Positions 8,557-32,245 of a stretch of 51,538 bases of DNA are shown here, piece after piece. Below the pieces are notes generated by a model. That model was not told where the DNA came from and did not search any database. It saw nothing but the letters and a program-made list of their open reading frames with translations. Position numbers and translations under genes: made by a program. This DNA is from a virus. The DNA is taken from the IMG/VR virus record IMGVR_UViG_3300043689_000058, positions 1 to 51,538 of that record; one strand, written 5' to 3'. How positions within the stretch are numbered: the first letter of the stretch is position 1; each line of letters opens with the position of its first letter.

Positions 8557-8748
8557 AATAGCCGTAATTAGCTCGGGGAAAAATCAGAAAAATTTTGAAG
8601 CGGGGTCGGGTCAAAATCATTAGACGGAGCGTAACTTTAGTTACTTTTTCCGGAGGCGACCGGCCGAAAAGAATGCTTTAATTTGGTTTTCAAGCGCGGT
8701 GAAGTCCTGCGGATCGTGAATAATTGCCCTCGATATTGCCGCGGGTGG

Positions 8749-8919: not shown

Positions 8920-9056
8920 TTGGCTGCTCGCTTGAGTGTCTCCGCCACAAATTGCCAGGCGATCTTCTCGTCGGCGGTCAGGTCAGTCCAGGCTGGGTGC
9001 TTCAAATGATTGAGGCATTCGCAATAGGCCTCGTACGCCATCTGACCCAGACTCAT
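8916..9056 (-). CDS. hypothetical protein, 46 aa (not in ORF track)
   Basis: MSLGQMAYEAYCECLNHLKHPAWTDLTADEKIAWQFVAETLKRAAK; ATG preceded by AAAAGG; coupled to the next gene by GTGA. Confidence 0.4.
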   Translation of the reverse strand: MSLGQMAYEAYCECLNHLKHPAWTDLTADEKIAWQFVAETLKRAAK

Positions 9057-9062
9057 CCTTTT

Positions 9063-9242
9063 TTAGTGCGCGTGGTTGGCTTTTCGACGGGCCTTGCCCA
9101 GCGGCACATAATCCACGTCACCGTCCTCGTGGATCTCGATCGCGAACGGCTGAAGTATCTCGTGATGTCCTTCCTCCAGTGCCGTGGCGTACGCCTGGTC
9201 TACCATCTCGCAAAGGTCAGCTTTGAGTTCTTCAATTTTCAT
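9063..9242 (-). CDS. hypothetical acidic protein, 59 aa (not in ORF track)
   Basis: Hand translation MKIEELKADLCEMVDQAYATALEEGHHEILQPFAIEIHEDGDVDYVPLGKARRKANHAH; its ATG overlaps the TGA of the giant gene (ATGA). Confidence 0.45.
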   Translation of the reverse strand: MKIEELKADLCEMVDQAYATALEEGHHEILQPFAIEIHEDGDVDYVPLGKARRKANHAH

Positions 9243-12200: not shown

Positions 12201-15200
12201 GTCACCTGCTTGAGCTTGCCCAGCGTGGCGCCTACCTGCTTGTTGCCCGCAAAGGCCTGGCGCTGCTGGCGACTGATCTGGCTGCGGATCTTGCCGATTT
12301 GCTGGGCGCCGTCCGTGAACTGACCCTGAGCCTCGAGTTCCTGCGCGGTGCCGGTGACCCGCTCCTGCATCGCCTGATTGAAATGGTCGCGCTCGGTTTC
12401 CAATCGCCGCGCGGCTTCCTCCAAGCCGGCGTCCCGGTAAGCTTTGATCTGGTCGTCGGTGCGCCGGGTCAAGAGATTGCGCAAGGCCGGGTTGACATCG
12501 GTCGGGCTGTGCGGGTTGCGCAGATCAGCCATCGCCTCGTGCACGTTGGAGTTGTACTGATTCTTGAAGGTCGCCCTGGCTTCCTCGGCGGCGATCTCGC
12601 GCCCGCGTATGTCGTAAACCGCAGTCTCGGGTGAGGCGTACCCCATCCGTTCCAACAGGGAGCGCCAGCGCTGCATTGCCAGCTTGGGCGGCTGGGCTCG
12701 TATGCCTTTCTCCGGGCCTAGACCGGCGGCTGTCTCCCGCAGCCGGTCCTTGACGAACAAGTCGCCGATGTTGGCCGTCTGAGTCACGCCCGCGGCCGTC
12801 CGCGCCGCGGCTGCTTCGGCCGATCCGGCCACATCGGCATAACGCGGGGGCTGCGGGGCGCCCAGGCCGCGCTCGATATTCTGCTGGCGCACCTTGTCGG
12901 AAACCGCTTCGCGCATCTGCTCGTGCTCCATCCCAAGCTGACGCAGAAAATCAAGCTGGCCTTCGCTCGGGCGTGACGGCACCCCGCCTTCTTCGCCCTC
13001 GGTCCCGCGCAAGCTGGCAAGCTGGTGTTCGCCCATCGCGATCTTGGCTTCGGCGACCAGGTCGGGGTCGAATCTTCCCGGCTGCATGTATTTCGGGAAC
13101 CGGAGCGCCGACATGGAATCGGCCAACAGATGCTGCATATCGAGCGGCGGCACCTGCAACCCCAGGCGTCTGCGGATGCCGTTCGAAAGCATATCCAGCG
13201 CCCTCTGATACCATTGCGGCGCGGAGTTCTCGATGTCATCCCTGGTCGCAAAGCGTTGCGCATAAGCGCCGGCCAGTTCCTCGGTCAGCGCGTGCTGATG
13301 CCGCGGGTTGGAGGCGTAATCCTCGTACCCGTAGCGCTTCGCCATCTCCTCCAAATTTCGAAACCCTTTCTCCTGGGCCAGGACATCGTTGAGCTTGGCC
13401 CGGTCGAAGTTGCGCTGGAGCCCGTTCATCGCGTCGACATAAGCCTGAGACTCCCGACTTCCGTAGAGGTAGCTGATCCCTTTGTGGATGGCGATCTCCT
13501 CGATGGAGGTCCGGTAAGCGTTGCGGTAAGGGTCCGCGCTGTTCAGGAGCGCGTCGGTGTTGAGCACCACCTTGTCGGCGGGGATGTCGTAATACCCGTG
13601 CCGGGGATCGTTGGCGTCGTGCTTGAACTGGATCTGCGCACGGTCACCCCAGATCCGCCCTTGAGTCTCCTCGATCAAGGCCCGCTGCAAGTCGGCATGG
13701 CTGTCGAACCGGTCGCCGATCACCCACAAATCGTGCATCGATCGGTCGTAGACCGTCTGCGCGGTGTTCTCGCGCTGCCCTTTGGTTAGCGTTTTCTTGA
13801 CCCGCTCAGGGAGCGCCTCGGCGTTCGGCACATACTTGACCACCTGTTCCAGCCCCATCTTGGCCGCGGCGTCGTTGACCTCCTGTTTGACGCGTGACTG
13901 GGTCGGCCGGACATCGAACCCCTCGGGCAAGGGCGGAGGCACAGCCTCGCCGCGGATGGCAGGCGCTTCATCTCCCGGCGGTCGGGAAGGATTAGACCAG
14001 GCATCATTGACTGCGGCAACACGCCGCTGATACTCGGCAACCGAATCGGGATCACCGGAATCCACCGCTGCTCTTTCAACAGGGGTCAGGTCGCCGTAGA
14101 CCTTGCGCTGCGCTCTGTCGAACTGATCCAGGTCGCCTGCTTTCTGCTCGGACTTACCCACCTCGGCCGTGGCGCCGATCGGCTCGAGCTTGATCTGCTG
14201 ATAGACGCCGGCTGCTTTTAGCTCGCGCATCTTCTGCTGCGCTGCCGCCTTGGTGGCGTAATGGGATTGGTGGTAAGCGGACAGATCGTGCGCCGGTTTA
14301 CTGACATCCAGGCCGCTGACCCGATACTTGGCCGGTTGGCCGGGTCGGTCTACAGATGTATAAGTGCTCGGCTTTGGTGTCGGAGCGGGACGCGCAGCCT
14401 CCTCCGGTCTTTTCGCTCCAGCATATAACCCGCGAGATGCCTTCTCTGCAGCTTCAGCCGCCTCATCTCTGGTATCGAAAACCAGGGGTTTATCGGTCAG
14501 TAGCCCGATCAACGGCTGACCATCCAGTATTGCGTGAAATCCGCCAGGTACTTCCTGAACATCCCAACGCGCTTGCCGTGCCAATAGTTCTTTGGCAAAC
14601 GATGCGGCCTGTTCCTCTTCTTGCGCACGAAACTGTTTCTGCTCCCATTGAATCCGGCCGTTCTGCAGCGAGGTGTCAAGCTGCCTGTCGGCATGGGCCT
14701 GCAGCCTGTCGTGCTGCTCCTGAGTGAATTCGCCGACGCTCAGCTTATCGGACAGGTCCTGTTTGCGTAGACGAAACTCTTCCCGGATCTTGTCCTGGAC
14801 TTCCTTCAAACTGCCTGAGGTCGCCGCCAACTCTTCCTCGTGGCTGGCGTAATGCGGCGCGACCGGCGTGACCGGCTGCTCAACCGGTCTAACCTCGGGT
14901 TCCGTGTAGCGGACGGTAAGGCGTTTCTCGCCCATGAAATCGACGGCCGCGGCGCGTTCCTGGTCGGTAGCTGTGGGCCAGTGACCGACATCCAATGTCA
15001 CTTCACCACGTTTGGCGGCGTCTTCCATCCACGCCTTGATTTCGGGTGCGCTCACCCCCAGGCGATCGCCGACCTTGGAAATCATAACTGCGCTGCCGGA
15101 GGTGCTTTTGCGTTCCTCGTCGTAAGCTGCGCGAACTTCGGCGGGTGTGATCTCGCGCCTGGCCTGCTCTTCGCGCCGGACTTCCTCGGTCTGGACAGCC

Positions 15201-16906
15201 GGCGTCTTGGATTCCTGTGCGGGTTCGGTGGCGATGCGCGGTTCCTCTGCTGGGCCTGGAGTCAGAGCTTTTTGGTATGGTGCGGCAGGTGTCGGTTCGG
15301 CTGTTCGAGTCGGAGCGATTGGTGCTGCCGGCGCTTCCGGCGTTACGGCCTGTCCCGCGCGGACGCCCTCGGCCGTGGGTTGCGGCGCGAACATCTCGTC
15401 CAAGATTGCTTGCGCCTGGCCCAGCGGGTCTTGGCGTGCCGCTTCGGTGGTGATCAGTTGTTGCGGATCTTGCTGCTGAGCCCTGGCTGCGAGCTCGGCC
15501 GTCGCCTGTGCGGTGGCGGGTCCGGGTGCCGCGGCTGGTGGTGCTGCCGCGGCTGGTACCGGTGGCGGCTGCGCTTCCCCGGATTCGGCACCCGTCTGCG
15601 GAGGTGCCCCCGGCTTTTCGCGCACACCACCCTCGGTGCGGGCGCCTCGTGCGTACTTCGCGTAACCTGGGATAACCCCTACTGCCGAAGTAAGGAATCC
15701 TAGACCGGCGCCGAAGAGCACCTGCTGATAGACGCCTTGATCAAGCGGCCGGTTGGGATCGTATCCGCTCAGCGCGGCGACCGCATTCTGGTAACCCTGG
15801 AAGGTAGCGCCGCCGGCTGCGCCTAACCCGCTGGCCGCGGCGAGCTCGGTTATCGCCTGTTTGGGAGTCTTGCCTGCCAGTTTCTGGCCCATCCTGCCGG
15901 CCACGGAGTTAAGCACCAGAGCCTGCGGAACGCTGGCTAGACCGCCCAATAGCGCGGCGTTCTCGGCGTCGTTATCGCTGGCGCCTTTGGCTTTGGCGTC
16001 CTCGTACTGGGTGCCGGAAGCGTAAAGATACTGGAGTCCAAGATCGATGACCGGCCCCGCAAAGGCTGCTGCACTCATCACCGTCGCGGTGCCGATCCCC
16101 GAAGAGATCTGGCCCGCCACCGATTGATCGAACTGCTGGGTGGTTGGCAGCGCCTGACGGATTTGCTCCTGCACCTCGGGTGCAGCCTGGGCAACTCTCC
16201 GCGCCGCGCCCCCGATCTGGCGCAGGAGGTTGGTCTGCCCGCTCGGGCCTGCCTTCGGTTTGCCGCTGGCCAGAATCCCGTTCAGCTCGTCTATGGACGC
16301 CTGGTACTGCGAATTCTTGATCCCCAGCTCCGGCAGGTTCGCCGTCTCCGGGGTGCCGGAATTGATCACCGCATCCATCTGCCGCTGGATCTCGGCCTGC
16401 TGCTGGACAAGAGCATCCCGCCGCGCACGGACCTGGTCTAAAGGCATCCCGACCAGTCGCGGGTCATCGGTGGCGCCGACATCGAAGTAGTGCGCCATGT
16501 TGGAGACGACCGCGCCCGTCCCGCCATAAGAGGTGACAGGGACGTCGGCCCCGCCCCTCATCAGGTTCCGGGCCATCGGCCCGATGATCGGTGCGTTAGC
16601 TGCGTCTGCAAACCCTCCGACTAACGGGCCAAATGCTGCGCGTAGACCGACCTGTAGCGCCGGGGAAATCGGCTGAGCCGCCCGCTCGTCCTGCGACATC
16701 TGGGCCAGTTTCTGCAGGTACGCCGCCCGCGCCGCCTGATCTTCTTCGGAAGGTTTCTCGGGAGCAGGCGCCCCGACCTCGCCGCGAAAATAAGGGTCAA
16801 GCGGTTCGGGAGGACCGCTCGGTTTAGCCCCCTCCGACATCTTGGAGAGCTTGTCGAGGTAAGCCGCCCGATCGGGAGACAACTCTGCTGTTTGATCGTC
16901 CGCCAT
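9239..16906 (-). CDS. giant internal virion / ejection protein, 2,555 aa
   Basis: Uninterrupted ORF, last and largest of three consecutive large genes after the tail genes. Contains a Gly/Ala-rich hydrophobic N-region, a Pro/Ala linker (about aa 430-560), long helical segments and several hydrophobic stretches near the C-terminus (GAVGTAAMAVVGSYVL, YYMAGLTSAAIAAAGSV). No catalytic motif recognised. Confidence 0.85.
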   Translation of the reverse strand: MADDQTAELSPDRAAYLDKLSKMSEGAKPSGPPEPLDPYFRGEVGAPAPEKPSEEDQAARAAYLQKLAQMSQDERAAQPISPALQVGLRAAFGPLVGGFADAANAPIIGPMARNLMRGGADVPVTSYGGTGAVVSNMAHYFDVGATDDPRLVGMPLDQVRARRDALVQQQAEIQRQMDAVINSGTPETANLPELGIKNSQYQASIDELNGILASGKPKAGPSGQTNLLRQIGGAARRVAQAAPEVQEQIRQALPTTQQFDQSVAGQISSGIGTATVMSAAAFAGPVIDLGLQYLYASGTQYEDAKAKGASDNDAENAALLGGLASVPQALVLNSVAGRMGQKLAGKTPKQAITELAAASGLGAAGGATFQGYQNAVAALSGYDPNRPLDQGVYQQVLFGAGLGFLTSAVGVIPGYAKYARGARTEGGVREKPGAPPQTGAESGEAQPPPVPAAAAPPAAAPGPATAQATAELAARAQQQDPQQLITTEAARQDPLGQAQAILDEMFAPQPTAEGVRAGQAVTPEAPAAPIAPTRTAEPTPAAPYQKALTPGPAEEPRIATEPAQESKTPAVQTEEVRREEQARREITPAEVRAAYDEERKSTSGSAVMISKVGDRLGVSAPEIKAWMEDAAKRGEVTLDVGHWPTATDQERAAAVDFMGEKRLTVRYTEPEVRPVEQPVTPVAPHYASHEEELAATSGSLKEVQDKIREEFRLRKQDLSDKLSVGEFTQEQHDRLQAHADRQLDTSLQNGRIQWEQKQFRAQEEEQAASFAKELLARQARWDVQEVPGGFHAILDGQPLIGLLTDKPLVFDTRDEAAEAAEKASRGLYAGAKRPEEAARPAPTPKPSTYTSVDRPGQPAKYRVSGLDVSKPAHDLSAYHQSHYATKAAAQQKMRELKAAGVYQQIKLEPIGATAEVGKSEQKAGDLDQFDRAQRKVYGDLTPVERAAVDSGDPDSVAEYQRRVAAVNDAWSNPSRPPGDEAPAIRGEAVPPPLPEGFDVRPTQSRVKQEVNDAAAKMGLEQVVKYVPNAEALPERVKKTLTKGQRENTAQTVYDRSMHDLWVIGDRFDSHADLQRALIEETQGRIWGDRAQIQFKHDANDPRHGYYDIPADKVVLNTDALLNSADPYRNAYRTSIEEIAIHKGISYLYGSRESQAYVDAMNGLQRNFDRAKLNDVLAQEKGFRNLEEMAKRYGYEDYASNPRHQHALTEELAGAYAQRFATRDDIENSAPQWYQRALDMLSNGIRRRLGLQVPPLDMQHLLADSMSALRFPKYMQPGRFDPDLVAEAKIAMGEHQLASLRGTEGEEGGVPSRPSEGQLDFLRQLGMEHEQMREAVSDKVRQQNIERGLGAPQPPRYADVAGSAEAAAARTAAGVTQTANIGDLFVKDRLRETAAGLGPEKGIRAQPPKLAMQRWRSLLERMGYASPETAVYDIRGREIAAEEARATFKNQYNSNVHEAMADLRNPHSPTDVNPALRNLLTRRTDDQIKAYRDAGLEEAARRLETERDHFNQAMQERVTGTAQELEAQGQFTDGAQQIGKIRSQISRQQRQAFAGNKQVGATLGKLKQVTREAAQIMANRLSFKAEQAVRRAEQAAMKDPRTLADRYIRAVADSIDSNFAKAGFNAADRPMLQELFNNFQQRIKEQLDEDVKAGRVSLPEAKEGRPPPSPTMKIRDVLSNFEMFKRTFGEVVDTLKTRNPNAVFFANLDRALAEPFGERGVRNVIGESNKISDLIYNHYSTQERIGNDLARSLVENLGLPNEQALRAQERFDALYRNILETESKAKIESIVSQMQTAAGKVPMKGEIDRMLDLMAIGGFNRDEYLNVIGPRFGLRTWTPEILQGIKEAGDMLMQIRDDGNASPAIRNRYEAQIADLIAQTAPMLGWQGKAVKRGEAMYMASLLTGLISHTGYVLQNAIGKMLNLSIMAMRTGDVHSFNQGMLAAMQGFERSLRTDIPYIWQTGMAPERGILEPGGTIPFRSALESTPFERGPWRVFNNYKYVGRALLAIEQFSLRGTEYAMKSMLASRLADELGYHGQDADRFANQAVYGTEDKIAEANRLSLEDQKKYNLTELERRVRENEILDRLKDQSENPDTAIADKETEALQSISGQATRFGLHTALREDVAGGAGIFSRIIQQARLANPAISFIIPFNKLPMNLANEYMSWSPIGIWRGRDMFSGTPIGKMFRMEPGTTRGIESYYGTIPGFAERVAAGKEGRPGGISQRELRDMAYEQMIKGAVGTAAMAVVGSYVLSQKDNPDPPFWITGEGPTDARARDMMKAEGVYPYTVKIGSMRFSYENLGGLKGMLATIGGAADYARFHSHPDDPGAYYMAGLTSAAIAAAGSVTDSSPLQGLSAILSIAEGRNSDEKLRRAQDQVANWASTIGMIPLGGTFGRQMYRVIHPEQYEANDMSSTLMRNIPIVNTIFLRPKLNVLGENVINPPWIKIPLVGGLIEAATMHPDPVWDYISHTGLHLSLPGYSGKVDGVKMSPEELHVYHEAKGSSLKQQLSEAIGDQNFTSQSIEDQDKEVKNEFEKTANEEGARAVIAHRMEKGQ

Positions 16907-19900
16907 TTAAGTTTTGGGAACTATTTGATACGAGATTGGATAGCTAGAGTCCTCGGGCAATCCGAGTCCCTCTCTGGTCGACCATGTCAAATCAATACCT
17001 GCTCCGGTCTTTTCACCAGGACCGGCGTCGCCTAGACTGGCATTCACCATCCTACCGGTCTTGGGATTAACGACCTTGACGACATATTTCGAATTGAAAT
17101 TCGTGGCAAAATTACTGGCATTAGGATTGCCATATTTTCGCAGTACCGACTGCGGCAGAGCCACCATCGGAGGACCCGATTTCCCTGAAATATCCGCGCC
17201 CCATCTGCCTCGATTCCAACCGGCTTCCGTGTAACCGCCTCGCGCAGGATTATCGACTTCACCAAACTCAGTACCCCGAACGGTAGTCATCCCGGCAGTG
17301 CTTGTGACTTGCCCGGTTTGCGGCGGTTGCCCAGTCTGGATCGGTTCATAGCTACCTGTCGCCGGGTTCAAGAAAAGCTTTGGTTGCTGCGTCTCTGGAG
17401 CATTGAGTGGCTCGGTTTGTCCTGACGTCGCCCTTGCCCGTGCAGCTGCAATCGCCCGGTCTACGCTGGACAAAGGTTGTGTCGCCCCTTGCGGCACCGC
17501 GGCAGGCTTGGATTCCCCGCTCGGCTGTCCAAACAATCGATTCATAGCCTGACCGACATTCGGGCCGCCGAGAGTATTTTGAGGAACGGGAACTGATCCG
17601 ATCTCCAGCGGCGGCGGCACATACTGGCCTGGTTCCTGCGACGACCCGGCCTGGTTGAGAGCGCTCAGCTTGTCGACCCCGATCGCTTCCACGGCCGGAG
17701 CGCTGATGACGAACTCGCCCGGAGTCAGCGCCGCGGCGACGGTGTCGGTCGAACCAAGGGTGAGAGGCGAAGTGACGGGACCACCTTCCTGGTAAGATTT
17801 GCTTACATCAGAAGGTAACGTTCTACTGACAGGCATTGCTGGAAATGGTTCATGTATGATCCCAATGGAATCATTTATGCCCTTACGCATCTGATCAAGA
17901 GTAGCGGACTGCTCAGGATCGAAAGGATTCTTTTCCCAGTTTGTTTTTAGTTCGTCCCTATATTTATAAAGGTCCTTTAGCGCGAAGCTTGCCTGCACGG
18001 CATTCATTCGTGTGTCGTAATCCGGACTTTGGTAATGAAGATTTATCCGGTTGAGCACCTGCAGTTGCCACTCTAGCCATCTCGATTCATTTATATTCCA
18101 TAAAGCATTAGCTTCCAGTCTTCCCGGTTCATCAGAGATTGCTCCCTTGAACTCTTTCCCTACTGGATACCCTCCCTTATGCGTTAGTTCCGGATTAACT
18201 ATACCTCCGCCCTGGTAACCGACCAGACCGCCGAGGCTCATCCCGGCGATTACGCCCTCGGTTCTGAGCTTCTTTACCAGAGCCGCGTCTCCTTCCGGCG
18301 TGCCAGGCTTAACCACTCTGCCCTTGTCGTCATAGAGCGGGTCCGCGCCGCTCAAAGCGTCAGCCCGGATCTGCTGGAAGAGCGGGGAGTTGACCACCTC
18401 GGGGCGGGCGAGAATCTCGGCATCGGTTCCCGGCTGAGTGCCGCGGATGCCGGGGCGTTGCCCGCTCCAGTGAGCACGCACCTGCTCCTCGTACTGCGGT
18501 CTGCTCATTTCGCCCCTGGCGAAAGCGTCGGCCAAAGGCTTGAGGGTCGGGTCTAATTGGATGGCCTGATTGGCTGCGGCGCGGCGTTCCTTGGCTTCCT
18601 GCGGGCTGATAGCCGGCCCCCCTCCTCGAGGCATCACTTTAAGGCTTCCATCAGGGTTACGTTGCATGTCGAAAACCGGATTGCCCTGCGCGTCGAACAT
18701 CCAGGGAATCGACCGGCGAAGAGTATCGCCTACTTGATCCACCGGAACATTCTTGAGCGTTATCATGGGCGGTTCGCGCTCGCCTTTGACGTATGGGAAA
18801 GCCGGGAACTGCAGCTCGGTCGTCGCGGCGGGCGGCATCTCGCGCTTAAACCATTGCGTCAGCATGTTCTGGTTAAGAGCTTGCACCCCGGCAATGTCGC
18901 CTGCGGCCAGGCCTGAGGGCAGCAGATTGCCGTTGCCGCCTTTCCTGATGTTGGCAATCTCGTTGTCGTCACCCAGGTAGGCGTTCAACTGATCCATCAT
19001 TGTCCCTATGCGCCGTCTATTGTCCTCGAACTGCATGCCGACAGTTCCCGACAACCCTTGCGGGATCTGGTTGTACTGGCTGCGTAAATCGTTTAAAACC
19101 CGTTTGATGTTGGCCCGGACCATGTCGTTGTAAAACCCGTTGGCGTCCTGGGTAAGTTTCTGCTCGGGAACGATGGTGCGATCGGTGAAGTTGTCTTCCT
19201 GATCTTTCGCGTACTGGTTCAGCATGCTGTGGCGCGTGATGCTGGCCGTCTGCAGATTGTTCGTTGCCTGCAACCGTGAAACCGTGTCCTGAACTATCTG
19301 CTCCGTAGCTGGGTCGTGCAGTTTCGGGTGCCGGTTCCACCACTTTGCTATCTGATCGTTGAAGTCCGGGGCAAGCGCATCGGGCAGTTCCGCCTGGGCA
19401 GTCTTCCACTCGGCCAGTGCCGCCATCGAGTTGTCATGCTGAACGCTTGACTGATCAAAATTCTGCTGCGCTTTCTGGTTCTCGATCGAGAGCTTCTTTT
19501 CGTCGAGCTGGTTCTGTTGCGCCTGGTGCCTGGTGAACTCGCGATCCTGCTGAGTCTTGAGATTGTTCTGCTCGATGAGGTTATCTTTGTTCGCCGAGTA
19601 AACCTCGGCTTCCAGCGCCAGCCGGTCAGCATTGGCCTTCGCCTCCTTGATCCGCGAATCAAGCGTCGCCTGGTTATATTGCGTGACAGAGTCTAATGAC
19701 TTGGCGCGGGCGATCGCCTCCTGGGTCGTCGCCTGATCCTGCTGCATTTTAAGGTTCTGGTTGTAGACCGAGTTGAGCAGGTTGGTGCCGCTCTGCGCGA
19801 TCGAGCTCATGATGGGCAGCGGGCTGGCCATGTTTTCGACGTTGTAACCAAGACGGGACAACGCGTCTAAATACTCCGGCCCGGTGACGATCTTCGGAGG

Positions 19901-19927
19901 GCCTAATGGATCTGAGAGGTCAGGCAT
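16907..19927 (-). CDS. internal virion protein with C-terminal RlpA-like DPBB (lytic transglycosylase-like) domain, 1,006 aa
   Basis: C-terminus YVVKVVNPKTGRMVNASLGDAGPGEKTGAGIDLTWSTREGLGL resembles the RlpA/DPBB_1 signature (V.V.N..NG..V.V..ND.GP......IDLS). The N-terminus is a Gln/Asn-rich coiled coil. The stop abuts the giant gene start. Confidence 0.75.
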   Translation of the reverse strand: MPDLSDPLGPPKIVTGPEYLDALSRLGYNVENMASPLPIMSSIAQSGTNLLNSVYNQNLKMQQDQATTQEAIARAKSLDSVTQYNQATLDSRIKEAKANADRLALEAEVYSANKDNLIEQNNLKTQQDREFTRHQAQQNQLDEKKLSIENQKAQQNFDQSSVQHDNSMAALAEWKTAQAELPDALAPDFNDQIAKWWNRHPKLHDPATEQIVQDTVSRLQATNNLQTASITRHSMLNQYAKDQEDNFTDRTIVPEQKLTQDANGFYNDMVRANIKRVLNDLRSQYNQIPQGLSGTVGMQFEDNRRRIGTMMDQLNAYLGDDNEIANIRKGGNGNLLPSGLAAGDIAGVQALNQNMLTQWFKREMPPAATTELQFPAFPYVKGEREPPMITLKNVPVDQVGDTLRRSIPWMFDAQGNPVFDMQRNPDGSLKVMPRGGGPAISPQEAKERRAAANQAIQLDPTLKPLADAFARGEMSRPQYEEQVRAHWSGQRPGIRGTQPGTDAEILARPEVVNSPLFQQIRADALSGADPLYDDKGRVVKPGTPEGDAALVKKLRTEGVIAGMSLGGLVGYQGGGIVNPELTHKGGYPVGKEFKGAISDEPGRLEANALWNINESRWLEWQLQVLNRINLHYQSPDYDTRMNAVQASFALKDLYKYRDELKTNWEKNPFDPEQSATLDQMRKGINDSIGIIHEPFPAMPVSRTLPSDVSKSYQEGGPVTSPLTLGSTDTVAAALTPGEFVISAPAVEAIGVDKLSALNQAGSSQEPGQYVPPPLEIGSVPVPQNTLGGPNVGQAMNRLFGQPSGESKPAAVPQGATQPLSSVDRAIAAARARATSGQTEPLNAPETQQPKLFLNPATGSYEPIQTGQPPQTGQVTSTAGMTTVRGTEFGEVDNPARGGYTEAGWNRGRWGADISGKSGPPMVALPQSVLRKYGNPNASNFATNFNSKYVVKVVNPKTGRMVNASLGDAGPGEKTGAGIDLTWSTREGLGLPEDSSYPISYQIVPKT

Positions 19928-19934: not shown

Positions 19935-20864
19935 TTATCCGAATAGAGTTGTGTCATCCGGCAGGCTTGATAAATCACTCAGGCTGAATCCTCCGGTGTT
20001 GCCGCCTCCTCCGCCTCCGAATAGACCGCTCAGCATTCCGAATCCGGTTTGGCCGGTCTGCGGGTTTTTGGTTCCCAACTGCTGGAACAAACTTGAGAGC
20101 TCTCCTCCGATCCCGGTCAGCACCGATTGCTGCGGCGCCCCTACCTGAGCCGCGGCGGCATCCGCTTTTGCGGTGAACGCGGCGAGATTGGCCTGGTAAT
20201 TTGCCGACTTGGTCCATTCAGCGCCCTGGATCAGGTCGCTCAAGGGTAGCAGCGAGAGCGGGTTGATCGGTTGCGGCATAAGGTAGTTGCGTGCCAGTTG
20301 CAGAAGATTGCTGGTCTGGCCGAACCCTGCCTGTTCCATCCCGACTCCGCGACCGATCAGGTCCAGGCTCGTTAAGCCGATATCACGCGCCGTTAACGCC
20401 CCGGTGGTTCCTGTACCCGCCCCCGCTGTTCCTCCCATCATCGACCGATAAGCTGCGCTGCGCTGAATCTGGTTGACCACGTCGCCGGGAACCTGACCGC
20501 CCAGGAACGCCTGCGTGGTCGGTCCTCCCAGCAGGCTGGTGGCGCCCGCCCCCATCTGAGTGACCATGTCCTGGTAACCCGGCAACGCCTGACCGAGCAG
20601 GGCCTGCAGTTGTTGCATGTTCGCCTGGTTAAGCGCCGGAGCCCGGCTGAACCCTCGCGTAATGGACTCTTCGGCAAAAGCCGGGACGTCGATGTTCCAG
20701 TACGGATTGTTCATCCCGGCAAACGGCACTACGAACTGGTTCGCCGCCTCGTTGATGCGCGAGGATTCCTCCGCCAGCGGCGCGTTAGCGCTGCCTTTGC
20801 TAAGCTGACCGGCCACGCTGACACCGGTTGAAACCAAACTGCCAATCAATGCGCCCCAGCCCAT
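19935..20864 (-). CDS. Gly-rich internal virion protein, 309 aa
   Basis: Hydrophobic N-terminus MGWGALIGSLVSTGVSVAG and a GGGGGNTGG tail; lies directly upstream of the two large ejection-type genes. Confidence 0.6.
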   Translation of the reverse strand: MGWGALIGSLVSTGVSVAGQLSKGSANAPLAEESSRINEAANQFVVPFAGMNNPYWNIDVPAFAEESITRGFSRAPALNQANMQQLQALLGQALPGYQDMVTQMGAGATSLLGGPTTQAFLGGQVPGDVVNQIQRSAAYRSMMGGTAGAGTGTTGALTARDIGLTSLDLIGRGVGMEQAGFGQTSNLLQLARNYLMPQPINPLSLLPLSDLIQGAEWTKSANYQANLAAFTAKADAAAAQVGAPQQSVLTGIGGELSSLFQQLGTKNPQTGQTGFGMLSGLFGGGGGGNTGGFSLSDLSSLPDDTTLFG

Positions 20865-20868: not shown

Positions 20869-21453
20869 TTAGTCTTTCATGTGTTCGTATGCGATTTGCG
20901 TCCATGCGGTCAGACGGCCCAGAATAAAAAGATAAGGAGACATAGCGGCCGGGATTCGCACCGCGAGGGCGACCGCGGCCGTGTAAGCGCTCGGGTTGGG
21001 CATGATGATTTTGCCCGCGGCGTGCAATCGTTCGGTCACCGATCTGATCCGGTCGTGGATCTCGGCCCAGTGCACGCTCAATAAATCGTCTACTTCCAGC
21101 CAGAAAGGGTCGACGTGCTCTTTCTGAAACGTTCCGCCCCAGCCCGGAACTTTGCCGCCCACACCCAGGATGTAATCCACTTCGGAGGCGGGATTTTCGC
21201 GGGCCAGAAATTTTACGCTCTGCTGCAGCGGGCCGTGTTTTGCGCCCAAGGTCAGCAGCGCGGCGGCAATCGCCTTGGTCAGCTCCCCGCTCCCGCCCGC
21301 GGCGTTTGCCACCGTCACGCTGGAGGCGTTGTTACGAAAAGCGCTTTCGTAATGGGCTCTGCAGAGGGCGTCTAACAGCCTGGATTCCTCGGCGCTCAGT
21401 CCCTCTATTCGCCACCACGCTTCCCTTATTCGTACCGGGGCAATCTTGTTCAT
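20869..21453 (-). CDS. truncated citrate synthase / citryl-CoA lyase-like protein, 194 aa
   Basis: Ordered matches to citrate-synthase blocks: LCRAHYES..NASS, LGAKHGP, KVPGWGGTF..HVDP, PNPSAYTAAV, GRLTAWTQIAYEH. About half the normal length. ATGA-coupled to the upstream gene. Confidence 0.55.
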   Translation of the reverse strand: MNKIAPVRIREAWWRIEGLSAEESRLLDALCRAHYESAFRNNASSVTVANAAGGSGELTKAIAAALLTLGAKHGPLQQSVKFLARENPASEVDYILGVGGKVPGWGGTFQKEHVDPFWLEVDDLLSVHWAEIHDRIRSVTERLHAAGKIIMPNPSAYTAAVALAVRIPAAMSPYLFILGRLTAWTQIAYEHMKD

Positions 21454-22025
21454 TTGTTAATCGTCGAGAAAACTTCCGCCTGCGCCCACGGCAGGAACTT
21501 CGAATAATTCTTTTCCGGGGATGGGTTCTCCGCTGTGTAACAGATTCGTTGGACGTTATAGATTCCCCATCGCGCGTAATCAAAAGGCAGACCGGGCAGG
21601 CAGATTTCCCAGATCGCTTTGCAGGCCTCGAGATGTTCCAGGTGCTCGAACTTGAAAACGAAATCGATCAGCGCATAATTGGCGTCCCGCATCTCGATCA
21701 GGGTGCGGGCGCACTGTTCGTGAAACGCCATCCGGGCTCGCTTCATCGATTCCATTACCTCGGACATCGGGCGCTCGATCCAGATCACTTTGGTCATCGG
21801 GCGCTCGGCCAGGAGCGCCTGCAGCACAAAGATGTTGGCCGAATCGCTGTTTCCGTAATAATGGCAACCGAGAGCAAAATGGTTGGCATTAGACCAGAAC
21901 TCTTCCGCGCTTCCGGCATGTTCGGTGCCTTCGTGCATGCACAAGCTGATCCCTTCGACGGTGAGGAATTTCGAGAGCCACATCGTCCTGCTTCTGGGGA
22001 ACCCGCATAAGAGGAAAGTTTTCAT
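21450..22025 (-). CDS. sulfotransferase-like P-loop protein, about 191 aa
   Basis: MKTFLLCGFPRSRTMWLSKFL resembles the 5-prime-PSB loop (PRSGTT.L) and VIWIERPMSEVMES the 3-prime-PB RxxxxxxS element of PAPS sulfotransferases. I use ATG 22025 rather than the alternative-start codon at 22043. Confidence 0.45.
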   Translation of the reverse strand: MKTFLLCGFPRSRTMWLSKFLTVEGISLCMHEGTEHAGSAEEFWSNANHFALGCHYYGNSDSANIFVLQALLAERPMTKVIWIERPMSEVMESMKRARMAFHEQCARTLIEMRDANYALIDFVFKFEHLEHLEACKAIWEICLPGLPFDYARWGIYNVQRICYTAENPSPEKNYSKFLPWAQAEVFSTINK

Positions 22026-22120
22026 CCTGAAAGCTTTGTTCAAGGGGGGAACGGTTCAAAGAAGAACAACAAAAGAAAGTTAAACCAGTAGTTCGCCTCC
22101 TTTCTGTGTTTGGTGGTTAG

Positions 22121-23143
22121 CTAACGAAGATTCCATATATCGCCTCCGGTAAACCACTCCTGGACTTGCACGCTGGCGTTATAGTCGCCGTCCGTGTCCC
22201 TGGCGTCTGTGTCTAATACGGCAAAAGCCTGGTTCCACGCGGCACTCGCTTGATCATAGGCACCGGTTCGCTCGAACTTGAGCGCCTGCAGGGCCAGCTC
22301 GAGCGCTCCGATATTGGCTATCAGAAGATCGGAGTAAGGCAGCGTCGTCCACATGAACCGCCGTTTGGCCAGGACCGTCAGAATGGCGGGCAGCTCGGGA
22401 CCGGTCCAAGTGATGAGGTAACGCCGGTAATCGGGGTTCAATTCGTCGGGTTCCCACATCGCCAACTGGGTCTGGTTCCCGAGCGCGTCCACCCCGTACA
22501 AGCGCAACCTTCCCACGGTTTGCGGCTTGGTGATCGAGCCGATGAACTGCCACATCTGCGGCGTGTCGTGGTAAGGCTCGCCCTGGACCGGGATCTGCAG
22601 CGTCTGCCCGTTGATGTAGGTTCCGTTGACGTAGCTGAAGGGCAAATTCCCATTGGTGTCCTCACCCTTGATAACGATGTAGCCTTCACTGGTCGCCTGC
22701 GGGATATCGGCGTACAGGCGCAGGGTCAGCGGCGCGGTGCTGGAGGGATCGGCAAAGGTACTGAACCCGGTTCCCAGATCCATCAGCACGTTTTGGGCGC
22801 ACGGGATGAACCCGACCGGCCCTCCGGGAAGCATCTCGTACCATCGGCTCTTGACGCTTAAAATAGACGTGCAGCCAGGTCCGCATCCGCCCAGGCCGGC
22901 CGTGCACGCCGGGTAAGCGATCGATGCGGCCAGCACCGTTTTGACGTCGCGCGGCATGGTGATGGTATTCTGGACGACATCGAACTGGTAACGGGCAATG
23001 GTCTTGTCGGGGTTCAGCCTGGGCAGAAGACGTTCGATGGCCCGGTTGATCGCGGTGGTCACCCGCGGATCGGTCGGACACATGCCGTAATCGACAAACT
23101 CGTTCAGGAGTTGCTGCGCCTGCGATAGGATTAATCTGCTCAT
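22121..23143 (-). CDS. tail/adaptor structural protein, 340 aa (by position)
   Basis: Clean ORF, ATGA-coupled to the tail-collar fibre gene upstream; no motif. Confidence 0.55.
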   Translation of the reverse strand: MSRLILSQAQQLLNEFVDYGMCPTDPRVTTAINRAIERLLPRLNPDKTIARYQFDVVQNTITMPRDVKTVLAASIAYPACTAGLGGCGPGCTSILSVKSRWYEMLPGGPVGFIPCAQNVLMDLGTGFSTFADPSSTAPLTLRLYADIPQATSEGYIVIKGEDTNGNLPFSYVNGTYINGQTLQIPVQGEPYHDTPQMWQFIGSITKPQTVGRLRLYGVDALGNQTQLAMWEPDELNPDYRRYLITWTGPELPAILTVLAKRRFMWTTLPYSDLLIANIGALELALQALKFERTGAYDQASAAWNQAFAVLDTDARDTDGDYNASVQVQEWFTGGDIWNLR

Positions 23144-26175: not shown

Positions 26176-27429
26176 TTACCAGCCGGTATCAGCGGAGTAG
26201 TGCCACATGTAAAAAGCCATTGCCGCATTAAGGGTTGAAATTTGGTGACCGCCATAACCTGATTCGCCAAGACTCTGATTGCCAGAGACGGCCCGATCTA
26301 CGTTAGCGCTTGTATCTCGTACAGTATTAACTGCACCGGTGCTGACGCTGTAGGCTGTCACGGTTGGGACTTTGGCCATTCGGCGTTTAAAGAAAATCGG
26401 GACATATGGATGGTTATTTGCTTGAGCCCAGATATTTCCCACCGAGCCGACAGCATTAGTTACATTGGGGACAGATGAGTAAGCAGCCGATTTGTCGTAA
26501 TACCTCTGGCACCGATCCAGGTTGGTGGCAAAATCCAGGTCTATCAATTGTGTGCAGTTTGGGCCGGGTTCGTGCTGGATGAAGCCCATCCAAAATTGCG
26601 TGTTGACTGGTAAGGAAGCAAAGTTCGTCATTCCTGATCCACCGTAAAAGTTGCCTGCTTGCCAAGTGGCTGTCGCTGGAGCGATCGAGCTCGAACCGCA
26701 AGCCAATCCTATAACAAGAAAATAGCCCAGGTTACCGGGAAGAACTGAAAATGAACCAGCCCCAGGCCATAAAGCAAGGTTTGGCAACTTAACCAGCGTC
26801 ATTGCATTAGCCGGGATAGTGCAAAGATTTACCAACGAATGGGTCTGATTATTATCTTGTATCGATAAACTGAAAGTCAACGCTTGAGTGCAATAAGCCA
26901 ATATAGAAAGGCTATGCACGTCTTTGGAAAGTTCTCGAAAAACTGACCCTTCTATTTGCTGGTAAATGATAAGGTTGTCACCGGCAGCTAGGGTGGCTTC
27001 TTGTCCAGTCAAGGTCAGTGCCAGCACTTTGCTGCTAACGAGGTAATTTGTCCCAGGAACAAAAGTATTATTCGCTGAGGCTGACGCCGTCGCGGTCATG
27101 GTTCCTGTTTTGCTGGCCCACCAACGATCACAAAGTCTGACGCTTCCTGTGATGTTAGCAGCGCTGCCAGCCAGAACCTGATCGACCTCGGAATTGGGGT
27201 TGCCAATCGCGTTAAAGCTGCGCAGGCGCACGCTGGTGATAACCGGAGTGGGGTCCGGAACGTAAATCAGGTTATCGGTCCCGAGCACGGCCTGGTTCCC
27301 GGCCTGGGCGCTAACCGCGTTAGGGCCGGAGGGACCCTGGATTCCGCCGATCCCTTGAGGGCCGCCTGGAGTGACCAGAACGCCGCTCGGGATTACGGTG
27401 CCTGGGACTGCTATACCAGGTGCGGCCAT
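26176..27429 (-). CDS. tail fibre / receptor-binding protein, 417 aa
   Basis: N-terminal G-x-y run GPQGIGGIQGPSGP, then FNAIGNPNSEVDQ and LDRCQRYYDK, motifs I associate with a widespread jelly-roll tail-fibre tip family. Confidence 0.65.
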   Translation of the reverse strand: MAAPGIAVPGTVIPSGVLVTPGGPQGIGGIQGPSGPNAVSAQAGNQAVLGTDNLIYVPDPTPVITSVRLRSFNAIGNPNSEVDQVLAGSAANITGSVRLCDRWWASKTGTMTATASASANNTFVPGTNYLVSSKVLALTLTGQEATLAAGDNLIIYQQIEGSVFRELSKDVHSLSILAYCTQALTFSLSIQDNNQTHSLVNLCTIPANAMTLVKLPNLALWPGAGSFSVLPGNLGYFLVIGLACGSSSIAPATATWQAGNFYGGSGMTNFASLPVNTQFWMGFIQHEPGPNCTQLIDLDFATNLDRCQRYYDKSAAYSSVPNVTNAVGSVGNIWAQANNHPYVPIFFKRRMAKVPTVTAYSVSTGAVNTVRDTSANVDRAVSGNQSLGESGYGGHQISTLNAAMAFYMWHYSADTGW

Positions 27430-27430
27430 G

Positions 27431-29080
27431 CTAGACGACTCCTTTCACGGTGAGGAAGGATCTACCTATGTTGCCGCTTGCGAAAAAGTATCTAAAAGCA
27501 TTTATTGGCCCAAATATGTTGAGGTTTTCAGCCCATACTTGCCATTTTTGGCTCGCTAAATTAGACCTGCGTCCGCCGGAATCACAGAGGTAAGTCGAAA
27601 GCAACGTTGCGCTACCTGGATAGATAATCACTTTAGCCTGTGCCGCATAAGCTGCGCTGGAGGTGATGTTGGGGATCAATGGTATGTTAGCGCCGGTGCT
27701 CTGATTTTCGGTATAGGCAGCTGCCGTGGGGGAAGAATTGTACATAATTCCATAGATGTAGCTACCAGTCGGAAACGTGGTCCCTCCATCATTGGAAACT
27801 AGCCCAGACATTGTATCATCTTGTGTAGTTCCTGCCACACCCGTAAATTGTAATTCGAAAAGCCGATAGCCAACCGGCAAGAGAATCGTGACGCTGGCAG
27901 TAGAACTCACCGTATCGACAGTCCCTAAAATCACCTCCCTCTTGAGCCCAAAGGTGCGCCAATTGGTGCCGTCGGTGATGACGGTGCATTCCTGACCCGG
28001 CAGTAGCGGGATAGAAAAGACTCCGGTTCCATCGATCGTTCCTCCGTTGGTAGCAATCGTGATGGTGCCTGTGGTCCCGGTAATTCCCATGTCGTTCCGA
28101 ACCTGGAAGTAAAGACCACTTGCCGGGAAGGGAAGGGTTAATGTCCAGCTACCACCGGCGCAGATGATGTATTTTCCGCTGTCAGCAGCCGTGAGGGTAT
28201 AGGCCGCGGTTTTACTGACGAACCCTTTCCAGATGGTGGGGGCCAGGTTGTGACAGGCGTTGTCGCCACCGACGAAATCGGTGCTTAAGCCTGAGAGCTG
28301 TTTGAGTAATCCTGCCTGGGTAGCATCGGCTGGCGGGATGGATGTTGGCGGTGCCGGGTTGACCAGGGTCAGGCTGTTCCCGCTCTTGCTCTGGACGACG
28401 AGCTCGCCAGGTAAAGTGGGGCTCCCGCCAGCTTGGGCTACGAACACCGGTTCACCGACCGCGACCCAACTGGCGTCCGTAACCGGCACCGTAACGGTGG
28501 TAGTACCGTCGGCGGGGGGAACCGTGAAACCGGCTCCTGTCGGAGTCCAGGCGTTCGCACCCGGACTGCCGGCTGCTCCAGGTGAACCGGCCGGACCCTG
28601 ACTACCGGTGGCGCCGGTCGGACCTTGCGCCCCGGTGGCACCTGTAGGCCCTTGCGAACCCGTGGCACCTGTCGCGCCCGCGGCACCGACCTGGGCGATC
28701 AAGTTCCAATAAGTGGTATTGGTCGGGGCTTGATTGGTGTTGCCTAAAATGCAGACGTAGCTCGATCCCAGATAACTGACCGTGTCATAAGGGTTGTAGG
28801 TGGTGACAGAAGCCCAAGCTCCTTTCCAGGTGTAACCCTGGCCAGCCGGTCCCGGCGGGCCGGCCGGCCCCTGTGAGGGACCTCCGGTACCGCCCTGGTA
28901 CAAAATGTCATTAATTTTGACCAGGCTGGCGCGTTCGGCATCCCCTGCTTTGGGTTGAGTGGTGTTGTAAGTGTTGCCGGGACTGGCCGGGAAAGTGCCG
29001 CGGGACCAGAGGATTTCATTGATCTTGACGAGGCTGTCACGTTCGTCATCGCCCGGTCTTGGTTTGGTAGTTAACGGCAC
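27431..29080 (-). CDS. collagen-like tail fibre, 549 aa
   Basis: Two N-terminal copies of the PxxGDxExxSLVKINxIL module; G-x-y tracts (aa 63-82 and 132-175); YTWKGAWASVTTYNPYDTVSYLGSSYVCILGNTNQAPTNTTYW resembles a CBM5/12-type aromatic module. Confidence 0.8.
   Translation of the reverse strand: MPLTTKPRPGDDERDSLVKINEILWSRGTFPASPGNTYNTTQPKAGDAERASLVKINDILYQGGTGGPSQGPAGPPGPAGQGYTWKGAWASVTTYNPYDTVSYLGSSYVCILGNTNQAPTNTTYWNLIAQVGAAGATGATGSQGPTGATGAQGPTGATGSQGPAGSPGAAGSPGANAWTPTGAGFTVPPADGTTTVTVPVTDASWVAVGEPVFVAQAGGSPTLPGELVVQSKSGNSLTLVNPAPPTSIPPADATQAGLLKQLSGLSTDFVGGDNACHNLAPTIWKGFVSKTAAYTLTAADSGKYIICAGGSWTLTLPFPASGLYFQVRNDMGITGTTGTITIATNGGTIDGTGVFSIPLLPGQECTVITDGTNWRTFGLKREVILGTVDTVSSTASVTILLPVGYRLFELQFTGVAGTTQDDTMSGLVSNDGGTTFPTGSYIYGIMYNSSPTAAAYTENQSTGANIPLIPNITSSAAYAAQAKVIIYPGSATLLSTYLCDSGGRRSNLASQKWQVWAENLNIFGPINAFRYFFASGNIGRSFLTVKGVV
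28556..28687 (-). repeat. collagen-like G-x-y coding repeat
   Basis: GAAGATGATGSQGPTGATGAQGPTGATGSQGPAGSPGAAGSPGA; 27-nt periodicity visible in the DNA. Confidence 0.85.
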
Positions 29081-30950: not shown

Positions 30951-31499
30951 TTATTTCCGGGACGAATCGGTGTTCCAGCCGAGATGCTGCACGATCCCCT
31001 CAAAAACAGCTTCGGCGATCGTCCATCGGTAATCTGTCGTTGCCAATTTTTCTTCCGTGGCGCGATGGCTGATGAATCCGATCTCGGCCAGGATGGCCGG
31101 CATCACCGTGGCGTTCAAGACGTAGAGGTCGCTTCGATACTTGAGCCCCCGGTCACGGTCGCCGGTCGCCTGCAGCATGGCCTGCTGCACCGCAGCGGCC
31201 AACCGTTTACCGGCATCGCTTTTGTACAAGGTTTCGATCCCGACCGCGCTCTCACCATTTGAATTGCAATGTATCGACACGAAAAAATCCGCACCCCAAT
31301 CGTTGGCGATAGAGGCGCGATCGCTGAGTGTCACGAACACCTCCGCCTTCCTCGTGAGCCTGGTTTGGATACCCGATTCCTCGAATAGGGTATCCAGGCT
31401 CTTGCACACATCCAAAACGACCAAGCTTTCCTTCAGGCCCGATGGGCCGCAAGCGCCCGGATCGCTTCCTCCGTGACCGGCATCGACAGCTATCTTCAT
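30951..31499 (-). CDS. N-acetylmuramoyl-L-alanine amidase (Amidase_3 type) endolysin, 182 aa
   Basis: MKIAVDAGHGGSDPGA, FVSIHCNS and GIETLY are the Zn-ligand blocks of Amidase_3 (AmiC/CwlD-like); no signal peptide. Confidence 0.85.
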   Translation of the reverse strand: MKIAVDAGHGGSDPGACGPSGLKESLVVLDVCKSLDTLFEESGIQTRLTRKAEVFVTLSDRASIANDWGADFFVSIHCNSNGESAVGIETLYKSDAGKRLAAAVQQAMLQATGDRDRGLKYRSDLYVLNATVMPAILAEIGFISHRATEEKLATTDYRWTIAEAVFEGIVQHLGWNTDSSRK

Positions 31500-32154: not shown

Positions 32155-32172
32155 TTTTTTCTATTTCTTTTT

Positions 32173-32245
32173 TGCAGGGGCGGGATTCGAACCCGCGACC
32201 TCGTGGTTATGAGCCACGCGACTTAGACCAGCTTGTCCACCCTGC
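32173..32245 (-). tRNA. tRNA-Met, anticodon CAU (elongator-type, or Ile2 if lysidine-modified)
   Basis: Reverse complement GCAGGGTGGACAAGCTGGTCTAAGTCGCGTGGCTCATAACCACGAGGTCGCGGGTTCGAATCCCGCCCCTGCA has anticodon stem CGTGG/CCACG, loop CTCATAA and T-arm GCGGG-TTCGAAT-CCCGC. G1-C72 is paired; no encoded CCA. Confidence 0.85.

Follow-up and report, generated by a model that had tools for sequence, protein, structure and literature searches.

Why would a phage carry, in its late operon, a gene for half of a citrate synthase fold that overlaps a gene for a sulfotransferase-like protein? This question is raised by IMG/VR virus record IMGVR_UViG_3300043689_000058, a 51.5-kb phage contig (the window, by which we mean the whole stretch of 51,538 nucleotides analyzed here). 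An earlier examination of this DNA, referred to below as the original prediction, had described two overlapping open reading frames (ORFs) and proposed that they form a two-enzyme module. We find that the two genes, here called A and B, are a conserved accessory module of the late operon, sometimes encoded as one fused protein, and that A is not a Krebs-cycle gene. The account that we prefer, with a confidence a little short of even, is that A and B make up a two-part sulfotransferase module in which A would be a non-catalytic ligand-binding partner of a catalytic B. Both ORFs and their ATGA overlap were found where they had been placed, and both lie on the minus strand, which had been left unspecified.

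20869..21453, minus strand: gene A, 194 amino acids (aa); predicted truncated citrate synthase/citryl-CoA-lyase-fold protein, from PF00285, PDB profile, AlphaFold2 and Foldseek matches.
21450..22025, minus strand: gene B, 191 aa from the ATG (MKTF); predicted minimal sulfotransferase-fold protein, like a tyrosylprotein sulfotransferase (TPST), from the ORF, AlphaFold2, Foldseek and a family profile.
21450..21453, minus strand: ATGA overlap of the B stop (TGA) with the A start (ATG), read from the sequence.

Profile matches and the predicted structure place A in the citrate synthase superfamily, with the C-terminal half of the fold only. The protein matched the Pfam family PF00285 above threshold (E value, 6.2e-11; bit score, 42.4; gathering score, 27), a match far beyond chance, and the alignment spans positions 161-348 of the 357 in the hidden Markov model (HMM), in line with the earlier remark that the N-terminal half is missing. 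The five citrate synthase blocks listed for A in the original prediction were all reproduced in HMMER alignments. A PDB search with the A sequence alone gave the citryl-CoA lyase (CCL) 6hxp as the best match of known structure (E value, 3.6e-5); a family profile of 33 members retrieved 6hxp at 1.6e-11 and PrpC and citrate synthases at 5e-11 to 1e-9. The AlphaFold2 model of A (predicted local distance difference test [pLDDT], 94.6; predicted template modeling score [pTM], 0.90) had a citrate synthase fold, as had been expected: a Foldseek search of the PDB returned 6hxp first (E value, 2e-7; template modeling score over the query [TMq], 0.79), and behind it came PrpC, citrate synthases, and ATP-citrate lyase (ACLY) through its citryl-CoA-lyase module. 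There were 148 matches at an E value of ≤1e-3, and the best 50 of these 148 were all citrate synthases, PrpC, CCL or ACLY (TMq, 0.65-0.79).

An exhaustive profile search recovered at least 256 A-family clusters at 50% identity (E value, ≤1e-30). Among the 147 representatives listed, most are 170-200 aa long, with a median of about 185; the entries below this range appear to be fragments, and those above it are fusions. One entry of the representative library, P0212 (307 aa), has an N-terminal pentapeptide-repeat region fused to a citrate-synthase-like domain, i.e., a fusion partner other than a sulfotransferase. At 194 aa, A falls short of a full two-domain citrate synthase subunit (about 360-440 aa, with N-terminal large-domain helices). 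Its NCBIfam scores are far under every equivalog cut-off (26.9 bits against 212 for citryl-CoA lyase, NF004869, and 20 against 505 for citrate synthase). The source annotation (JGI) nevertheless calls it "citrate synthase."

To judge the chemistry of which A might be capable, the positions of the citrate synthase active site were compared across the family. In pig citrate synthase numbering these are His274 in GPLHG, His320 in GYGH, Arg329 in DPR, Asp375 in PNVD, and Arg401 in SR; the N-terminal half of the enzyme supplies part of the phosphate-binding site for coenzyme A (CoA) and much of the dimer interface. A residue census was taken over 268 distinct A-family members, with positions mapped through HMMER alignments to CCL and PrpC. 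The corresponding segments of A are as follows.

21229..21246, minus strand: A residues 70-75, GAKHGP, equivalent to citrate synthase GPLHG; H73 corresponds to His274 and is kept.
21100..21153, minus strand: A residues 101-118, KVPGWGGTFQKEHVDPFW, equivalent to PGFGHR...DPR, with the G-W-G loop retained, G107 at the His320 position, and F117 at that of Arg329.
20980..21000, minus strand: A residues 152-158, PNPSAYT, equivalent to PNVDFYS; catalytic Asp375 is replaced by S155.
20902..20919, minus strand: A residues 179-184, GRLTAW, equivalent to SR..GW; R180 corresponds to Arg401 and is kept.

The equivalent of His274 is a histidine in 267/267 members, and that of Arg401 is an arginine in 267/268. 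The remaining catalytic positions are different: the His320 position (G107 in A) is occupied by N (126 members), G (84), S (44), T (7), C (3), H (2), or A (1), and the Asp375 position (S155) by S (169), A (65), G (33), or T (1), with Asp in 0/268. The N-V-D of CCL and the NADFY of PrpC align to the N-P-S region of A, the Asp equivalent to ACLY D1026 being lost. At the Arg329 position (F117), I, L, A, D, and V are found, and no Arg is among the seven commonest residues, which account for 237/268 members. The original prediction that a His/His/Asp triad is retained therefore fails, since of His274/His320/Asp375 the family keeps His274 alone (H73), with N/G/S and S/A/G at the other two positions. 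The Arg set that binds oxaloacetate or citrate is likewise incomplete: the Arg401 equivalent is kept, Arg329 is replaced, and Arg421' falls outside the aligned region. Because the His320 and Asp375 equivalents are missing from essentially the whole family, it is very unlikely that A carries out canonical aldol or retro-aldol chemistry, whether as a citrate synthase or as a lyase. The same two losses, together with that of Arg329, leave the suggestion that A performs acyl-CoA or oxo-acid chemistry with a retained triad unsupported.

What the family does conserve includes the equivalents of His274, Asn242, Asp327, Asn373, and Arg401. G104 and G106 are present in 268/268 members, W105 is W in 255 and F in 13, N153 is found in 268/268, and K111 is K or R in 231/263. 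H34, R40, N42, S44, H73, K111, and R180 form a conserved basic pocket, and 15 invariant residues, mostly polar, surround the former active-site region. The G-W-G loop of A we take to be the counterpart of the adenine-recognition loop of citrate synthase (residues 314-320, contacting the adenine of CoA).

Gene B, from its motifs, family profile, and modeled fold, is predicted to be a minimal member of the superfamily of sulfotransferases that use 3'-phosphoadenosine 5'-phosphosulfate (PAPS), with both nucleotide-binding motifs intact. B matches phrog_10855 (E value, 1.1e-10) and had no match in NCBIfam. A Foldseek search with its AlphaFold2 model (pLDDT, 95.1) placed human TPST1/2 at the top (E value, 3e-4; TMq, about 0.6); the 14 top-ranked chains were all sulfotransferases, with shikimate and nucleoside monophosphate kinases ranking below them. 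A wide B-like profile, made from 27 diverse B-like partners from related loci, matched TPST1 (3.1e-7), Mycobacterium tuberculosis Stf1 (2e-5), and SULT1A1 (1e-4) in the PDB, and its 32 best-scoring PDB chains were all sulfotransferases. A fused homologue in locus L007 scored 24.6 against the Sulfotransfer_4 cut-off of 22.8. Three segments of B bear on its possible activity.

21975..22004, minus strand: B residues 8-17, GFPRSRTMWL, equivalent of the 5'-phosphosulfate-binding (PSB) loop.
21744..21782, minus strand: B residues 82-94, WIERPMSEVMESM, 3'-phosphate-binding (PB) motif R85-x7-S93.
21930..21941, minus strand: B residues 29-32, CMHE, candidate catalytic base H31/E32; aligns to TPST1 C-G-E-E.

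The PSB loop aligns to GVPRSGTTLM of TPST1 and YPKSGTTW of SULT1A1, and WIERPMSEVMESM aligns to MVRDGRASVHSM of TPST1 and VARNAKDVAVS of SULT. Across the 27 B-like partners, only R11, T14, H31, G58, R85, S93, and L129 are nearly invariant; R11 and T14 of the loop and R85 and S93 of the PB motif are each conserved in at least 90%. FPRSRTMW and WIERP......S, which had been singled out as two PAPS-binding loops, thus coincide with the 5'-PSB and 3'-PB motifs. H31 is nearly invariant and an E or D at position 32 is common in B-like proteins, suggesting that H31/E32 may act as the catalytic base. In TPST, a Glu and a Lys are reportedly catalytic, roles that were described with the TPST2 structure. 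A reading of B as a Walker-type kinase or nucleoside triphosphatase was rejected, since B is without a GK[ST] motif and every significant profile match is a sulfotransferase.

The start of B matters for this assignment. The longest open frame reaches a TTG at 22043, and the ATG at 22025 was preferred because it fits the starts of the homologues (MKTF/MK..): full-length homologues begin a few residues ahead of a conserved FLIC segment, and the closest one likewise begins with MKTF. The JGI gene call starts at Met15, so that the P-loop is lost. Public calls of B and 8 homologues begin at an internal Met (21983-22025, minus strand, is the stretch concerned in the window); the proteins are P0083, P0089, P0091, P0096, P0102, P0105, P0110, P0111, and P0112, the last of which starts later still. 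Such calls remove the FPRSRT nucleotide-binding loop and probably help to mask the sulfotransferase kinship.

Translational coupling of A and B is supported by the ATGA overlap. No promoter- or terminator-like site was found on the minus strand within the B-A pair or in the spacer upstream of B. This spacer (22026-22120, minus strand; 95 nucleotides [nt]) holds a strong Shine-Dalgarno-like AAAGGAGG about 70 nt before the ATG of B; no start codon follows it, and the ATG of B itself is preceded by a weak ...CAGG motif only. GC content at third codon positions (GC3) is 0.70-0.71 in A and B, equal to that of the flanking genes, and recent horizontal acquisition of the pair was rejected on this ground.

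To determine how regularly A and B occur together, loci were gathered from IMG/VR, JGI metagenomes, and assemblies, and a census was made of 57 distinct A sequences. All homologues are metagenomic (82 clusters of A and 30 of B at 90% identity). A sulfotransferase-like gene on the same strand adjoins A in 41/57 loci, upstream in 28 and downstream in 13, and in a further 2/57 A is fused to a sulfotransferase-like domain. Three of the 57 have at least 650 nt on both flanks and no such partner, and 11 end at a contig edge. A is therefore adjacent to a sulfotransferase-like gene, in either order, or fused to one in 43/46 decidable loci, as the proposal of a conserved neighborhood in related phages would have it. 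The partnerless A lineages number four when L081, which was merged with L022 in the census, is included. Single ORFs containing both Pfam domains occur in L007 (385 aa) and in L008-L010 (363 aa, identical in three samples; 9449-10540 in L008). In the fusion P0146 (364 aa), both domains were recognized by the B-family HMM and an A-profile match, and P0069 (320 aa) is a probable third fusion, with PF00285 on record and an N terminus matching B.

In the most diverged lineages (L013, L019, and L020), the neighbor of A is a different, more canonical sulfotransferase-like protein with a GQFRSGTS motif. These partners matched Pfam Sulfotransfer_3 weakly in L013 (3.8e-5) and in L019 (0.006); the one in L020 was recognized by its motif and the family HMM only, and the L013 partner, searched against the PDB as a single sequence, had no match. 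Variable gene order, repeated fusion, and exchange for an analogous partner are classical signs of functional coupling, and the linkage of A and B is strong.

Some loci have further genes beside A, or have A elsewhere in the genome. In L001, a 55-kb relative, genes for a Lipase_3 protein, a 112-aa ORF, and a response-regulator receiver domain lie just upstream of A (8437-10004); the stand-alone receiver domain (Pfam E value, 7.7e-14) has a stop that overlaps the start of A. In L020 (2897-3367), a weak GNAT acetyltransferase-like ORF (Pfam E value, 0.005) is directly upstream of A and the sulfotransferase-like ORF directly downstream, so that three candidate 3'-phospho-ADP-cofactor proteins stand in a row (GNAT-like, A, and sulfotransferase-like). 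A-only copies are found among early genes in two 78-kb contig lineages, and those in L022/L081 are near genes for dUTPase and ribonucleotide reductase. In L003 (6061-10570 of a 78.6-kb contig), A has no sulfotransferase partner and is a lone plus-strand gene amid small early genes on the minus strand, with an AcrVA2-like gene (PF26125) at a distance of about 3 kb and a ThiF-like gene nearby. In the B-only relative L084, an HNH-endonuclease-like ORF of 143 aa (3561-3992) takes the usual place of A, between B and the family that follows the module.

The surroundings of the pair in the window are those of a late operon. Positions 1-127 of the contig are identical to 51412-51538 (a 127-bp terminal direct repeat), and the contig is probably a complete phage genome, about 51.4 kb in length, that either was assembled as a circle or is terminally redundant. 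The main features of the operon are listed below.

36966-38741, minus strand: terminase large subunit, late operon.
30951-31499, minus strand: endolysin, late operon.
26176-29080, minus strand: tail-fiber proteins, late operon.
22121..23143, minus strand: late-operon protein of 340 aa (g340); in 17 distinct loci its family is found upstream of A/B, always preceding the module.
19935..20864, minus strand: glycine-rich protein of 309 aa (g309); in 18 distinct loci its family is found downstream of A/B, always following the module.
16907-19927, minus strand: protein of 1006 aa (g1006), after g309; weak tape-measure-like PHROG matches only.
9239-16906, minus strand: protein of 2555 aa, after g1006; PHROG internal virion protein match.

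Clade-wide, the gene order is g604-g247-g340-[B, A]-g309-g1006, and the pair occupies a fixed late-operon slot in a clade of podovirus-like phages that are uncultured and come mostly from soil metagenomes. Its position between tail-fiber genes and internal virion proteins, pointed out in the original prediction, is thereby confirmed. The slot is only in part a hypervariable accessory hotspot, as the closest clade holds only B, or B and A, there. When 222 neighboring ORFs were clustered, no third recurrent partner gene was found among them, only structural families. The fixed slot is compatible with the earlier idea that virion proteins or the host envelope would be targets of modification by the module, or that the module would be packaged; weighing on this idea, A and B each also occur alone, and B-like genes of cultured phages are found among early genes.

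Several other features of the window were recorded. The PHROG match of the 2555-aa ORF is weak and covers residues 2238-2416, with no Pfam domain; its relatives in other loci are 1485-2057 aa long, one of them with LPD38. The last ~130 residues of the 1006-aa protein (16907-17300, minus strand), …GYTEAGWNRGRWG…VVKVVNPKTGR…DAGPG…, resemble by eye an RlpA/DPBB-type lytic transglycosylase, a likeness that would be expected for an ejection protein and that neither Pfam nor PHROGs reported. The 549-aa tail-fiber gene (27431-29080, minus strand), whose product matches collagen-like tail-fiber PHROGs, contains a 27-nt tandem repeat (2.6 copies; 28604-28674). A tRNA-Met (CAT) gene (32171-32247, minus strand) lies inside the late operon and abuts the stop of a 430-aa ORF (32245-33537), and in the early region (1115-3482, plus strand) a gene for an AAA_5 (MoxR/dynein-type) ATPase is followed by an overlapping DUF7192 gene.

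How might the two proteins work together? In the two-part sulfotransferase module that we tentatively favor, B would be the catalytic part, a stripped-down TPST-related sulfotransferase that holds PAPS through both loops, and its conserved His-Glu/Asp pair could serve as the base. A would be a citrate synthase/citryl-CoA-lyase fold minus the aldol/retro-aldol residues (His320, Asp375, and Arg329), and would hold for B either the acceptor or an adenine nucleotide with a 3'-phosphate (PAPS, 3'-phosphoadenosine 5'-phosphate [PAP], or CoA). A is most likely a non-catalytic ligand-binding partner because its catalytic residues are lost while the basic pocket and the G-W-G loop are kept. A possible parallel is the citrate-synthase-homology module of ACLY, which may load CoA for a neighboring catalytic domain (PMC10115795). 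The folds, the motif conservation, the loss of catalytic residues, the linkage with its fusions, and the conserved slot come from the data, whereas we infer that B may be active with PAPS and that A may bind a ligand for it. The two-enzyme module originally proposed is supported in part: B is sulfotransferase-like and the pair is conserved, but the catalytic triad of A is lost.

Several observations weigh against this account. The B protein of the window scores below the Pfam cut-offs for sulfotransferases (Sulfotransfer_4 E value, 0.0032, 17.8 bits against 22.8; Sulfotransfer_3 E value, 0.015, 16.0 against 27). The C-N-K-D-P segment of TPST1 aligns to G-N-S-D-S of B, in which the catalytic Lys is replaced by Ser. 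Among 32 window ORFs searched with Pfam, A and B included, none was recognized as a gene for PAPS synthesis or as CoA-related, and a host supply of PAPS must therefore be assumed. In three related contigs (L083-L085), B fills the slot of the module by itself, and A stands alone in at least three other phage lineages; thus, neither partner strictly needs the other. Finally, the many invariant polar residues of A could equally mean a new catalytic activity.

The last point leads to an alternative that we hold to be unlikely, though it is the one among the rivals to which we give the most weight: that A is still an enzyme, acting on a CoA thioester or a hydroxy- or oxo-acid with a rebuilt active site (e.g., H34, H73, and D115 with R40 and R180) and working sequentially with B in a two-step small-molecule pathway, in which, for example, a sulfated carboxylate is made or consumed or CoA is modified. 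The 15 invariant, mostly polar residues that line the former active-site region would fit such an enzyme, A-only and B-only genomes fit autonomous pathway enzymes better than an obligate complex, and a GNAT-like gene, whose product would use acetyl-CoA, is directly upstream in one locus. However, the general base Asp375 is missing in 268/268 members and His320 is present in only 2/268, the N-terminal half that in citrate synthase carries part of the CoA phosphate site and much of the dimer interface is absent, and no third pathway gene recurs beside the pair. The simplest metabolic alternative, that A is an ordinary auxiliary metabolic gene whose product works as a citrate synthase or citryl-CoA lyase and raises host flux through the tricarboxylic acid (TCA) or reductive TCA cycle, is hardly credible: apart from the PF00285 score above the cut-off and the label in the source annotation, the protein has half of the fold only, its NCBIfam scores fall far short for both enzymes, two of the three catalytic residues and Arg329 are gone family-wide, and the gene is linked to a sulfotransferase-like gene rather than to metabolic genes.

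The location of the pair suggests other explanations. It is somewhat less likely than a rebuilt enzyme that the module is an injected effector of host takeover or anti-defense, with a host protein or an immune signal containing adenine as the target of sulfation by B, and with A as a binding pocket or sponge. The accessory-like presence and absence of the genes, their variable order, and the extra genes in the slot (response-regulator receiver, lipase, GNAT, and HNH) are consistent with this, as are the placement of the lone A copy of L003 on the opposite strand in an early region ~3 kb from the AcrVA2-like gene and the retention in A of the loop that recognizes adenine in citrate synthase. 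Yet neither A nor B had a match in PADLOC, the library of which covers defense systems and not anti-defense genes, no known defense or anti-defense partner was found, in the closest clade nothing but B and A is found in the slot, which is not hypervariable there, and the argument is inferential throughout. A related and similarly improbable idea starts from the cofactors: the module would combine two folds that use 3'-phosphoadenosine cofactors (PAPS for the sulfotransferase and CoA for citrate synthase), A capturing an adenine-containing molecule, perhaps CoA or else a nucleotide second messenger of bacterial immunity, and B inactivating or diverting it by sulfation or using CoA as a group donor. 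If this were true, sulfation would be a chemistry of host takeover or counter-defense delivered from a phage virion operon. More doubtful again is the view that A and B are enzyme folds exapted as non-enzymatic parts for the virion, its assembly, or ejection, in place of T7-like small internal virion proteins. Their fixed slot directly before a glycine-rich protein and large internal virion proteins and the loss of catalytic residues in A would agree with it, but the conserved residues of B are precisely the nucleotide-binding ones, for which a purely structural role does not account; moreover, A-only copies lie in early or nucleotide-metabolism regions, and B-like genes of Pamexvirus and Sanovirus lie among early or replication genes.

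Whichever account holds, the A family is sizeable and restricted to uncultured phages. No tblastn match to three diverse A queries was found in 50,697 GenBank phage records, no relative of A in the 185,579 species genomes of GTDB, and no match to its fold among the BFVD viral structures; the wide B-like profile, run against a set of 5.8 billion proteins, retrieved no further named or cellular homologues. Literature searches for phage citryl-CoA lyase or citrate synthase, PF00285 in viruses, or phage sulfotransferases yielded no relevant work, and, as had been surmised, no description of a phage system composed in this way. Although both folds are known, no earlier account appears to exist of the half-size degenerate citrate synthase subfamily, of the way it is coupled to a minimal sulfotransferase, or of its location in a virion operon, and there is a realistic but unproven chance that A and B represent a new functional system. 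We found no report, in cells or viruses, of a degenerate citrate synthase fold recruited as a partner, sometimes fused, of a minimal sulfotransferase. In practical terms, the "citrate synthase" labels on the A family could lead virome studies to count TCA-cycle auxiliary metabolic genes wrongly. Phage sulfotransferases have essentially no described role, and one conserved in a virion operon hints at modification of the virion, the host envelope, a host protein, or a metabolite. The proteins are small and confidently modeled (pLDDT of about 95), and with natural fusions available they should be easy to express.

Compared with known sulfotransferases (TPST1/2 [5wrj, 3ap1-3], M. tuberculosis Stf1, and SULT1A1), B has the PRS(G/R)T 5'-PSB loop and the R-x7-S 3'-PB motif at matching positions, and, in the place of the catalytic Glu of TPST, a residue that is acidic or a His. 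It differs from TPST in its length of 191 residues, ~100 fewer than in the TPST catalytic domain (about 300), with a TM score of only about 0.6, in the replacement of the loop Gly by Arg (PRSRT) and of the Lys of CNKDP by Ser (GNSDS), and in having no membrane anchor; unlike TPST and other PAPS-dependent sulfotransferases, it is paired with a citrate synthase fold. Among cultured phages, B-like proteins (with phrog_10855 as a further B-like family) occur in Pamexvirus PA_LZ02, AAT-1, and phiH1 and in Sanovirus Suzuki, those of Pamexvirus being annotated as "similar to sulfotransferase" or "nucleotide triphosphate hydrolase." They match the B HMM at an E value of 1e-12 and have the PRS.T loop and R...S motif as in B, whereas they are 25-29% identical to B, are encoded among early or replication genes, and are without a citrate-synthase-like neighbor.

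For A, the C-terminal helices of citrate synthase and 2-methylcitrate synthase are collinear (TM score of 0.7-0.8 over the query), while the N-terminal half is gone and the whole family is without His320, Arg329, and Asp375. In both sequence and structure, A is matched best by Hydrogenobacter thermophilus CCL (6hxp) and the ACLY module (6hxl and 6z2h), which, like A, have a short citrate synthase fold without part of the large domain and share with it the GxxHG, GxG-loop, PN, and R..W blocks. With its 194 residues, A has about 70 fewer than CCL (268) and, unlike both, has neither the Asp of N-V-D (ACLY D1026, citrate synthase D375) nor the His-Arg of GYGHR. The ACLY citrate-synthase-homology module has been proposed to carry out CoA loading and acetyl-CoA release allosterically and not to catalyze cleavage (PMC10115795). 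That module is partnered by a succinyl-CoA-synthetase-like domain, whereas A, which unlike CCL and ACLY is encoded by phages, has a sulfotransferase fold as its partner.

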